From sequence record PX246730.1: a DNA stretch of 64,000 bases; one strand, written 5' to 3'. The DNA comes from a phage. Position 1 is the stretch's first letter. The number at the start of each line of letters is the position of its first letter. Positions 34,500 through 36,351 of this stretch are shown here, one piece after another. Under the pieces are notes generated by a model. It made no database searches, was not told the DNA's origin, and saw nothing but the letters and a program-made list of their open reading frames with translations. The position numbers were made by a program, and so were the translations under genes.

Positions 34500-34930
34500 G
34501 CAGATTTTTTATAAGGCTACTGCCATCCTTCCATACATTACCTTACCACACCCTACCATACCTAACCAAACTACACCATACCATACCTAACCAAACTACA
34601 CCATACAATACCTTTTTAAAAGACCTTGTTTAAAGGCCTTTTAAAAAGGTAAGTCTCATTTTAATGTAGCTGAGACTAACTACCCATACATTACCTTACC
34701 ATACCAGACCTCACCCTACCTTAACTTACCTTACTCTATCCTACCAAACACCACTTAAAAACCCTCTTAGAAGACTCTTAAGTGATGTAATCGGATTTTT
34801 ATGTAGCTCCGATTAACTACCCATACCAAGCCTAACCTGACCGCACCAAACCTTACAACACCACACCATACCAAACCTCATTAAAAGACCCTCTTAAAGA
34901 CCTTTTAAAAAGGAGCCTCCGAAGAGGCTA
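34500..34930. repeat. long intergenic repeat region, copy 1 (G-free A/C-rich tracts plus hairpins)
   Basis: blocks 34500-34542, 34617-34705, 34752-34787 near-identical to 36049-36091, 36151-36239, 36316-36351. Confidence 0.8.
34901..34930 (-). terminator. intrinsic terminator (minus strand)
   Basis: on minus strand AGCCTC-ttcg-GAGGCT followed by CCTTTTT. Confidence 0.55.
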
Positions 34931-34940
34931 CCTAGTCAAC

Positions 34941-35381
34941 TTAGAAAGGTTTTCTACGTTGCTTGTTAATGTTAGCTTTCATAGCAGCTAAATGGTTTTG
35001 CTGTTCAATCAGTCGTGAACGTTCTTGATGACTAAGTGCCATAGTGTTCACATTCTCAATCGCTTGAGTGGCTTGCTTTAAAGCGCGACCAATCTTACCA
35101 GACATTTTACGTTTTGCAATAGTTGCTTGATGCTTAGGTTCAACCACACGATAACCAACACCCATTGAAGCAACCAGATAAATCTTCTCTTCTTTAAGAA
35201 GCTTCTCAATAAACTTCTCAAGTCGGTTTAGACGTGTAAGCGCATAAGCCTTCATTTCATCTTCGTACTTAACAATGTCGCCTTGATAAGTTGGCTTCAC
35301 AATACCTAAGAAGGTATCCATCTCAGAGTGTGATACAGTGTCACCGTAACTAAACTTTGCTGCTAATGCTTTTGTATTCAT
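34941..35381 (-). CDS. hypothetical protein (146 aa)
   Basis: ORF track; flanked by long direct repeats. Confidence 0.5.
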   Translation of the reverse strand: MNTKALAAKFSYGDTVSHSEMDTFLGIVKPTYQGDIVKYEDEMKAYALTRLNRLEKFIEKLLKEEKIYLVASMGVGYRVVEPKHQATIAKRKMSGKIGRALKQATQAIENVNTMALSHQERSRLIEQQNHLAAMKANINKQRRKPF

Positions 35382-35383
35382 AA

Positions 35384-35986
35384 TTAAACGTTACCTTCTG
35401 AAATAACTTCTACAGAAAAACGACCAAAGCGTGGACGCCAATCACCTACACCACAAAGGTTACCAGCATTTTCCAGAACCATCAAGAGTTCTTCTTTGGT
35501 GATTTGCTCTTCATCGAACATCAAACCAAACTCTACAGACCAATCACGGAAGATTGGACGGTAGCTCATAACTCGTGCTGTACCAATCTTAACAGATTTA
35601 GCATAGATAAAATCTGGATTCTTAGCAAGTTCTTGTGGGTTTGCTGGACAGTTCTTGATAGTCATTGGGAAGACTACATCTGTCAGCATAATAGCTCGGT
35701 CAATTACCTTACCAAGTTTGTTGAGTTTTGCACCAGACTTGATACAAGCCTCAATCATCTCACCGTTCATAACAAAACCTAGCTGCTCATCGTAGTAACA
35801 AGAAGTCACCAGTTGACTTTCTGCTAAGAGCGCATAATCTTCGTCAGTCTTTTTACGTTTACTGGACAGAGACTTGTGATATTTTGTCAGAGGGTTTAAT
35901 GGGTCTGACAACGTATCGTTATGGCTCAAGAAAGGACGAGTACCAGTGATTTTGATATTTAGCAGTTTCATAGCATTTAGCTCCAC
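35384..35986 (-). CDS. hypothetical protein (200 aa)
   Basis: ORF track; flanked by long direct repeats. Confidence 0.5.
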
Positions 35987-36048
35987 ACTTTAGTTGATTG
36001 TTAAGTTGTTTGTAAAGAACCCTCAACAGAAGACTCTTTAGAAACTTG

Positions 36049-36351
36049 GCAGATTTTTTATAAGGCTACTGCCATCCTTCCATACATTACCAAACAGTAC
36101 CGTGCCACAACACACCATACCCAACCCCACCTAACTCTACCACACCTCATTAAAAGACCTTGTTTAAAGACCTTTTAAAAAGGTAAGTCTCATTTTAATG
36201 TAGCTGAGACTAACTACCCATACATTACCTTACCATACCGTACTTTACCTTACCGTACCGTACTTTACCCTACCGTACCGGACAATACTTAACCCGACCT
36301 CGCCCTACCGGACATCACTTAAAAACCCTTTTAAAAGACTCTTAAGTGATG
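36049..36351. repeat. long intergenic repeat region, copy 2
   Basis: near-identical blocks shared with 34500-34787; contains G-free tract ccgtactttacc repeats. Confidence 0.8.

Follow-up and report, generated by a model that had tools for sequence, protein, structure and literature searches.

A locus of the SUSP1 VIPR clade in a Felix O1-like phage and candidate targets of its guide RNAs

The region 34499-36409 of a phage DNA stretch of 64,000 nucleotides (nt), record PX246730.1, is almost certainly a complete Viral Interference Programmable Repeat (VIPR) system of the SUSP1 clade, treated as type II in the preprint that describes such systems (June 2026; bioRxiv 10.64898/2026.04.26.720920; cited here from its main text and the legend of its Fig. 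S14). The whole 64,000-nt stretch is called the window below, and positions are window positions unless another record is named. The kind of system is already known, and the window locus falls in the same clade as the published model system, that of phage SUSP1; the window itself comes from a Felix O1-like phage (Felixounavirus). The assignment is directly supported here by protein identity, by the anatomy of the guide RNA (vrRNA) genes and the covariation of their tails, by target matches with their statistics, and by the absence of self-targeting. Judged from its sequence, the locus has every feature that defines SUSP1-clade VIPR, the RAMP fold of the effector apart.

Proteins, guide RNA genes and layout of the locus

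The larger of two minus-strand genes in this region, vipr, encodes a protein of 195 amino acids (aa) that is identical at 191 of 195 positions to PDB chain 36pp_D, "SUSP1 Vipr protein" (E=6e-128), and 97.9% identical to the phiSUSP1 gene by tblastn. The preprint draws the clade at more than 90% identity to SUSP1 Vipr, and the window protein lies within that bound. A profile of 36 Vipr homologues matched the 36pp chain at E=1.4e-81 and nothing else meaningful, and a glycine-rich C-terminal motif (G170, G174, R179, G183 and F185) is invariant in all 36. The second gene, vap, follows directly and is 99.3% identical to the gene that follows vipr in SUSP1, which gives the two-gene vipr-vap arrangement. 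In the preprint, Vipr is a RAMP-family protein of about 20 kDa accompanied by an accessory gene vap; that of the SUSP1 operon is named vap1, its co-expression enhanced protection, and type II vap genes are described as predicted DNA-binding proteins (bioRxiv 10.64898/2026.04.26.720920). Our searches found no Pfam family for Vipr or Vap, no PDB relative of Vap and no Rfam family at the locus, and both proteins are entered as "hypothetical protein" in the public records inspected. Both genes had been recognised in a first-pass annotation made from the DNA letters, which placed the start of the larger one at GTG 35986; the solved SUSP1 homologue begins MKLLNIK, so the start is the ATG at 35971.

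The first-pass annotation had drawn attention to long near-identical blocks in the intergenic regions that bracket these genes, 34500-34930 and 36049-36351, and both the alignment and a shuffle test confirm them. A 43-nt block is exact (34500-34542 and 36049-36091). A second, put at 89 nt, is in fact 90 nt long with one mismatch (34616-34705 and 36150-36239) and includes a 69-nt exact run, and a third of 36 nt has two mismatches (34752-34787 and 36316-36351), so that the lowest identity is 94% and not the 97% first given. In 200 shuffles of both regions the longest exact match averaged 8.9 nt and never exceeded 11 nt, against 69 nt observed. The similarity is not one of short promoter or terminator motifs found in many intergenic regions, the shared motifs being confined to this locus.

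Between the shared blocks the sequence has a 5-nt period (identity 0.54-0.69 at lags of 5, 10, 15 and 20 nt against roughly 0.1-0.4 at other lags), and no periodic array was found elsewhere in the window. Neither this period nor the composite structure of the two regions had been noted in the first-pass annotation. The left region consists of three tandem composite units and the right region of two; each unit is a vrRNA gene made of an A/U-rich leader hairpin (16-18 bp, folding at -11 to -20 kcal/mol), 11-19 YNNGG repeats and a conserved 3' tail of 31-32 nt. Of the explanations offered for the blocks by the first-pass annotation, small RNA genes was the correct one: the two regions encode five vrRNAs. 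On this anatomy, what looked like "direct repeats" are the constant parts, leaders and tails, of paralogous guide RNA genes: the 43-nt block holds tail A and the last two repeats, the 90-nt block leader P1, tail B and the last repeats, and the 36-nt block leader P2, while the hypervariable guide code occupies the sequence between them. Along the minus strand, on which all neighbouring genes also lie, the order is ligase gene, promoter, R2, R1, vipr, vap, terminator, L3, L2, L1, promoter and next gene, with all five arrays in the sense strand. The features are as follows.

36382-36409, minus: sigma-70-type promoter TTGACA-N16-TATACT (11/12 match), directly after the ligase gene and reading into R2, R1, vipr and vap
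36313-36351, minus: leader hairpin P2 of vrRNA R2, an 18-bp A/U-rich stem ending at the first repeat (-15.7 kcal/mol), kept in all relatives; 36-nt block
36218-36312, minus: vrRNA R2 array, 19 repeats (CC AG GA CG TA AT CC AC AG AA AC AC AA AA AC AT AA AA AT)
36187-36217, minus: tail type B of vrRNA R2, pseudoknot stem 1 GUAGU/GCUAC, stem 2 GUCUCA/UGAGAC
36145-36186, minus: leader hairpin P1 of vrRNA R1 (-11.7 kcal/mol), part of the 90-nt block
36080-36144, minus: vrRNA R1 array, 13 repeats (GT AG TA GG TG AT GT GT AC AC TT AA AT), putative anti-vrRNA-tail guide
36048-36079, minus: tail type A of vrRNA R1, with the last two repeats the 43-nt block
35384-35971, minus: vipr, predicted 195-aa RAMP-family RNA-guided effector; phrog_4652, function unknown
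34941-35381, minus: vap, vap1-type accessory gene, 146 aa, directly after vipr; phrog_5926
34914-34929, minus: intrinsic terminator hairpin AGCCUC-UUCG-GAGGCU with a U-run, after vap, conserved in SUSP1 and other relatives
34876-34913, minus: leader hairpin P1 of vrRNA L3 (-11.2 kcal/mol)
34821-34875, minus: vrRNA L3 array, 11 repeats (TT AT GT GT AA TT GC CA TA TT AT)
34790-34820, minus: tail type B' of vrRNA L3, stem 2 AUCGGA/UCCGAU
34749-34789, minus: leader hairpin P2 of vrRNA L2 (-17.4 kcal/mol), left copy of the 36-nt block
34684-34748, minus: vrRNA L2 array, 13 repeats (TT AG AG AA AA AA AG GA CT AT AA AA AT)
34653-34683, minus: tail type B of vrRNA L2
34611-34652, minus: leader hairpin P1 of vrRNA L1 (-20.3 kcal/mol)
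34531-34610, minus: vrRNA L1 array, 16 repeats
34499-34530, minus: tail type A of vrRNA L1, left copy of the 43-nt block
34451-34479, minus: sigma-70-type promoter (10/12) for the next gene (34024-34407), an annotated promoter in phage AYO145A; downstream edge of the VIPR locus

The promoter at 36382-36409 has the same sequence and place in SUSP1 and is an annotated promoter in AYO145A. An inverted repeat, GGTGAGTA…TACTCACC, at 36354-36393 overlaps its -10 element. The repeat, which SUSP1 conserves, may serve as an operator or form a 5' structure. A gene for a Cro/C1-type helix-turn-helix (HTH) regulator lies 2.5 kb downstream, at 33518-33817. The leader hairpins may act in processing, termination or protein binding.

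The five arrays R2, R1, L3, L2 and L1 contain 19, 13, 11, 13 and 16 YNNGG repeats, with Y in 72 of 72 repeats and the last G in 69 of 72. Among 40 distinct guides from 15 loci with parsed guides the NN dinucleotides are hypervariable while the leaders and tails are near-invariant, and the arrays of relatives vary freely in sequence and length with the periodic pattern kept. This is the anatomy described in the preprint, in which vrRNAs of about 100 nt consist of 9-16 YNNGG repeats, with GGY conserved and NN hypervariable, and an invariant 3' tail of about 40 nt with a pseudoknot. The tails found here fall into four types, B, B', A and A', all of which fit an H-type pseudoknot. In the B/B' tails 97.7% of cells are paired, and sliding the 3' partners lowers this to 27-39%; there are three compensatory pairs between B and B'. 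Taking both tail families, the values are 97.7% and 97.8% against 27-47% in slid controls, with three compensatory pairs each, in a small sample of 8 and 5 distinct sequences. Tails A and A' covary in both stems (AAGG/CCUU to GUGG/CCAC, and GGCAG/CUGCC to GGUAG/CUACC).

Compared with LTH02, its closest relative, the window has a 25-nt (5-repeat) internal duplication in vrL1 and a 10-nt (2-repeat) deletion in vrL3, and guides of the lineage gain or lose blocks whose lengths are multiples of 5 nt, and swap 3' blocks from one vrRNA to another. Indels of this kind appear to be how guides evolve. The last two to four repeats before the tail (…TAAGG TAATG TATGG) are common to four of the five window vrRNAs (34684-34698, 34531-34545, 36218-36232 and 36080-36089) and are not found in most relatives, which suggests gene conversion between the vrRNA genes of this lineage. 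The near-universal terminal TATGG repeat may be scaffold rather than guide.

The SUSP1 system, as laid out in the preprint, has one vrRNA upstream and three downstream (bioRxiv 10.64898/2026.04.26.720920). It shares with the window locus its position between the DNA ligase gene and a gp86-like gene, the promoter, leader hairpins, tail types, terminator and YNNGG grammar, and the targeted satellite family. It differs in having one upstream vrRNA where the window has two, and all five window guide codes are different from those of SUSP1; the vrRNA next to vipr ends in tail A' in SUSP1 and in tail A in the window, where the guide code matches tail A' itself. The 19-repeat array of the window also exceeds the published range.

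Guide codes and their matches in satellites and rival phages

The formation of a ribonucleoprotein (RNP), the pairing rule and the silencing mechanism are taken over from the SUSP1 system, where, according to the preprint, vrRNAs are expressed at about 100 nt and co-purify with Vipr, and targets bound by the RNP are transcriptionally repressed; either DNA strand can be targeted and no protospacer adjacent motif (PAM) is needed. Its authors report that changing NN while keeping GGY reprogrammes target specificity, that the guides target a satellite phage in Escherichia coli genomes, that natural targets are competing mobile elements, and that the skipped base is often a codon wobble position (bioRxiv 10.64898/2026.04.26.720920). 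By analogy, the window vrRNAs would be bound by Vipr in an RNP in which, as the preprint proposes, the constant GGY positions stay outside base pairing. Pairs with double-stranded DNA would be formed by the NN dinucleotides, with one target base skipped after each (NN, skip 1, NN, skip 1), and bound targets would be silenced transcriptionally. We scored targets by the 1-nt-skip rule of the preprint, counting matched NN bases with a threshold of at least 0.80 and shuffled codes as the null.

The Fig. S14 legend of the preprint gives 72% identity between a satellite baseplate gene and that of SUSP1, and the window gene behind the tape measure was therefore used to search E. coli genomes. Of 5,426 complete E. 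coli genomes, 474 have in the chromosome a "phage baseplate protein" gene whose DNA is 92-96% identical to a 558-nt part (20894-21451) of this window gene, and 552 have the island family to which it belongs. The island is about 10 kb long and carries recombinases, a Dam-type methyltransferase, an HTH protein or one of about 185 aa, a tape measure and the baseplate gene, and is inserted at mdtG, yciI-tonB, yecD/yecN or ymdF-wrbA (seven satellite island loci, L181-L187; for example NZ_CP041392.1 2898733-2908133).

Forty-two clade codes, namely the 40 parsed guides and two truncated core sub-codes, were compared with seven satellite variants. At least 0.80 was reached by 55% of them and at least 0.85 by 43%, against 1.9% and 0% of shuffled codes. 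Guide vrR2 matched 30 of 38 bases in the 185-aa gene of one satellite (L186; 0/1000 shuffles) and vrL2 21 of 26 in the satellite HTH-protein gene (14/1000 shuffles), in each case with the skipped bases at codon wobble positions. The 13-repeat form of vrL3 in LTH02 matched 23 of 26 in a 183-aa satellite gene (0/1000 shuffles), and in this ancestral vrL3 target, too, the skipped bases are wobble positions. The 11-repeat LTH02 form of vrL1 matched 18 of 22 at a satellite intergenic site (39/1000 shuffles), and the AYO145A form 20 of 22. The vrL1 duplication and vrL3 deletion in the window lower the match to the satellite sites of the LTH02 forms. No window guide had a self-target of at least 0.80 in the window, the maximum being 0.73. 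The guides of this phage would be aimed at a satellite island whose tape-measure and baseplate genes are copies of genes of this phage group.

In IMG/VR, exact 10-repeat patterns of vrR1 and vrL3 gave 0 matches, which for vrR1 is due to a single natural mismatch, and 8-10-repeat patterns of vrL3, vrL1 and vrR2 gave only chance-level matches, those of vrL1 lying in unrelated AT-rich contigs including giant-virus bins. A BLAST search of E. coli genomes with the vrRNA scaffolds found nothing. Two satellite variants carry a vrRNA gene of their own (L186 3416-3485, minus, and L187 3417-3481, minus), with 14 and 13 YNNGG repeats respectively and A'-like tails (GTGGATTGTCGTAGCCACGTTAAAAATCGAC). No Vipr or Vap homologue was found in the satellites, so the protein of a helper phage is presumably needed. 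The codes of these two vrRNAs match sites in L181, another satellite-bearing locus, at 23/28 and 23/26 (0/300 shuffles); the 23/28 site lies in the flanking chromosome, outside the island.

The code of vrR1 points elsewhere. It matches the last repeats and tail A' (GGTGGATGGTAGTAGCCACGTTAAAAAT) of the upstream vrRNA gene at 22-25 of 26 NN bases in 11 rival-phage loci, including those of SUSP1, wV8, AYO145A, dune and Moogle. It also matches the vrRNA genes of the two satellites, reaching 24/26 in one (0/1000 shuffles), and its best match in its own locus, to its own tail A, is 19/26. In those rivals that were checked by coordinates, the matched site is flanked by the operon promoter on one side and the vipr start codon on the other, and in assays described in the preprint expression was repressed by a target between promoter and reporter coding sequence. 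The vrRNA next to vipr has tail A in the window and in LTH02 and tail A' in the other vipr-carrying relatives parsed, and about a dozen records carry the unit of vrR1 guide and tail A; it is the presence of tail A at the vipr-adjacent vrRNA that makes the 43-nt block identical to L1. We read vrR1 as a putative anti-vrRNA, or anti-VIPR, guide that would be aimed at tail-A' type vrRNA genes of rival phages and satellites and would spare its own locus through the replacement of its tail A' by A. For the SUSP1 clade the preprint reports satellite targets, and it mentions targeting of other VIPR systems with its P. fulva clade figure.

Several points weigh against the assignment as an active system of the published kind. 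Its main source is a preprint. The RAMP fold of the window protein (RRM core, glycine-rich loop and thumb) would follow from that preprint and from the existence of a solved structure, and a single-sequence structure model reached a pLDDT of 45.5, too poor for fold comparison. That the five vrRNAs are expressed and active we infer from 98% protein identity and identical scaffolds, and no convincing sigma-70 promoter of their own was found for the three vrRNAs behind the terminator (L3, L2 and L1). The 19 repeats of R2 lie outside the 9-16 of the preprint. Against the seven satellite variants, the window form of vrL3 scored 17/22, which is not significant, and the duplicated window form of vrL1 had no significant target.

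Relatives, orphan guides and exchange of the cassette

The region is matched by 231 phage records, of which 117 have the vipr-vap cassette and 113, lacking both genes, keep one to three orphan vrRNA genes. In the cassette-less relatives, including the Felix O1-type phage FO1a, the 2-kb region is reduced to 290-440 bp with one to three units, and these collapsed loci keep the upstream promoter and leader P2 as well as the downstream tail A and its promoter, which is the product expected from recombination between the repeated scaffolds. The comparison thus supports the suggestion of the first-pass annotation that the repeats can drive deletion or duplication of the cassette; it does not prove whether loss or gain took place. 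Nucleotide identity between genera is 94-98% for vipr and vap, against 85-87% for the ligase gene and 60-79% for downstream genes, which suggests that the cassette is exchanged horizontally or is under strong purifying selection. Two assemblies, momo and warpig, begin or end inside the VIPR locus, probably because of the repeats. A Felixounavirus VIPR locus, with Vipr 99.5% identical, is also present at 90716-92463 of the 147-kb record GU169904.1 "Staphylococcus phage SA1", which suggests a chimeric or contaminated assembly.

Such presence and absence recalls the PeSL elements of T4-type phages, reportedly described by Arbiol, Comeau and Krisch in 2010 as repeated intergenic stem-loop and promoter units that flank small accessory cassettes and are thought to mediate their gain and loss by recombination. 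The likeness fits the polymorphism of the window cassette, and one might regard the two regions as mobile, PeSL-like regulatory cassettes that regulate the two genes and provide homology for shuffling, with the periodic arrays incidental. Promoter-like and terminator-like sites at the edges, junctions inside repeated scaffolds among the 231 relatives, and a cassette conserved at 94-98% between flanks at 60-87% all accord with that idea. It leaves unexplained, however, the strict YNNGG periodicity with hypervariable NN, the covarying pseudoknot tails, the non-random matches of the NN code to satellites and VIPR loci, and the near-identity to an experimentally characterised RNA-guided system; PeSLs, moreover, have no periodic guide array, pseudoknot tail or dedicated RNA-binding effector. 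We consider it very unlikely, and the description of the blocks as paralogous regulatory regions in the first-pass annotation is loosely true at most. Scaffold recombination is better seen as a side effect of VIPR architecture, and recombination at the locus appears to be a by-product of its paralogous RNA genes.

The relatives also bear on the proposal of origin-like iterons, which found no support. Under this proposal the arrays would form an R-loop from a G-rich transcript or serve as primase sites, the A/T-rich palindromes would assist unwinding, and the two genes would encode initiators. The regions do have a marked strand asymmetry (plus-strand G at 39 of 431 nt on the left and 32 of 303 nt on the right), their palindromes are A/T-rich, and the locus lies among replication genes (ligase and polymerase). 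The ACC periodicity, furthermore, recalls T7-type primer sequences. Set against this, GC skew changes sign at about 30-31 kb and at 42 kb, tracking gene orientation, and has no inflection at the locus; about half of the close relatives, Felix O1 among them, replicate without both genes and most of the units; the enclosed protein corresponds to the solved Vipr and not to an initiator; and variable dinucleotides that match foreign DNA in a gapped code are not expected of iterons. The chance that the locus is an origin seems negligible to us.

No vipr or vap was found in the FO1a genome (best tblastn E=0.35, no profile match), which retains one well-formed vrRNA unit (L003 1509-1790). This type of orphan is the commonest, with 56 records, among them that of the type phage Felix O1 (NC_005282.1 57718-57828). 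The orphan guide of Felix O1, FO1a and Si3 matches nt 469-500 of vipr in codon register; across five vipr variants 18-20 of 22 bases agree, a score attained by 0 of 200-300 shuffles. An unrelated orphan guide, that of ULIM9 (L193), matches a second vipr site at 18-20 of 24 in five variants, with 20/24 in dune (0/200 shuffles). Orphan guides of BPS17W1, SP116 and JK55 match satellites at 0.86-0.91, and those of JH2 and HMD-P8 gave no significant match.

Taken with the match of vrR1 to tail A', the matches of orphan guides to vipr raise the tentative possibility, to which we give somewhat less than an even chance, that Felix O1-like phages also use VIPR guides against VIPR. Guide-only phages could borrow the Vipr of a co-infecting rival to shut down that rival's vipr operon. 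Alternatively, the orphan and anti-VIPR guides would be relics, self-silencing guides that preceded or followed the loss of the cassette. Neither the vrR1 nor the orphan-guide observation appears in the main text of the preprint, its supplements lying outside this comparison, and the element is not mentioned in the Felix O1 genome paper or in other genome papers on Felix-like phages.

Known RNA-guided systems and arrays in other viral contigs

CRISPR-Cas was rejected as an identity for the locus, which has 5-nt units with two variable nucleotides and two protein genes only, no Pfam Cas domains and no Rfam CRISPR-DR. In the preprint VIPR is a new class of RNA-guided DNA recognition, from which CRISPR is proposed to descend. 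Class 1 CRISPR-Cas, with its Cas7/Csm3/Cmr4 backbone on the crRNA, resembles VIPR, as the preprint sets out, in a RAMP-family protein, a variable guide with a constant structured handle, a periodic interruption of pairing (proposed for VIPR) and programmable interference with invading elements (bioRxiv 10.64898/2026.04.26.720920). Unlike it, VIPR lacks a CRISPR array, a Cas1/Cas2 adaptation module and a PAM, and relies on a single small protein; its guide is non-contiguous, with two of every five nucleotides read against two of every three target nucleotides, each guide is a gene with its own leader and tail, and the system is encoded by a lytic phage and not by a cell.

Phages also carry orphan CRISPR arrays and RNA anti-CRISPRs, guide-like RNAs without an effector that exploit host Cas proteins. 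The orphan vrRNAs of vipr-less Felix O1-type phages are similar in that they may need an effector provided in trans, or interfere with one; they differ in that, for the Felix O1 guide, the code matches the effector gene, vipr, of rival phages.

Neither Rfam nor Pfam has a model for VIPR. The pattern (ACCNN)x6+ACC occurs in more than 120 stretches of IMG/VR, spread over many unrelated viral contigs (loci L007-L126; for example L056, L083, L100-L102 and L123, and, in contigs of about 188 kb, L024 and L062-L064), and many of the arrays are heterogeneous and G-poor. In every contig checked the arrays are intergenic and their G-rich strand is the sense strand of both neighbouring genes. An open reading frame (ORF) matching the Vipr profile was present in the fetched stretch at 38 of 68 heterogeneous-array loci, mostly less than 200 nt from the array and always on the vrRNA sense strand, which agrees with the wider family described in the preprint. 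Some arrays are head-to-tail modules of 12-13 repeats (60-65 nt) punctuated by CACCTG, and some contigs of about 188 kb carry many arrays, each after a single gene.

An orientation so regular in unrelated contigs might be expected of tracts that bind host factors or pause transcription without any guide function, as RNA-polymerase pause sites, TRAP-like GGU binding sites or two-quartet G-quadruplexes. The 60-65-nt modules of some contigs are compatible with this, and by our own reasoning the 5-nt period fits on paper the G-10/G+1 spacing of pause sites. Such tracts give no reason, however, for hypervariable NN with conserved GGY, for a conserved pseudoknot tail, for an adjacent Vipr ORF at 38 of 68 loci or for sequence-specific matches to satellites and vipr, and the orientation rule is simply explained by co-transcription with vipr. 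We give this explanation next to no credence.

Candidates rejected in the course of the analysis were a replication origin with R-loop, T7-type primase sites, Rho rut sites on antisense RNA, clustered RNA-polymerase pause sites, a TRAP-like binding tract, two-quartet G-quadruplexes and decoys of the BREX GGTAAG motif. These ideas were dropped because of the orientation rule, the pattern of hypervariable NN with conserved GGY, and the VIPR preprint.

Elsewhere in the window, Rfam detected two group I introns at gathering threshold (39325-39608, minus, and 56011-56335, plus), the first in the DNA polymerase region and adjoining an HNH-type endonuclease ORF (38209-38724), and a cluster of 22 tRNA genes at 2113-6948 (plus), as reported for Felix O1.

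The analysis provides a base-level annotation of the Felixounavirus VIPR locus. In public records vrRNA genes are in places overlaid by spurious coding sequences or a bare "repeat_region", as in OQ850288.1 (ULIM9) at 38757-38864, ORFs 107/108 of UAB_Phi87, and MN850636/MN850635. The (ACCNN)n periodicity is a simple and sensitive marker for VIPR loci, and the claim that these systems target satellites has been reproduced independently with a shuffled-code null. For the biology of these phages the locus offers testable ideas of VIPR-VIPR conflict, in which orphan guides of the classic typing phage Felix O1 would point at vipr and a guide against a rival's tail would be paired with a tail swap, and of cassette loss or gain through recombination between guide RNA scaffolds.

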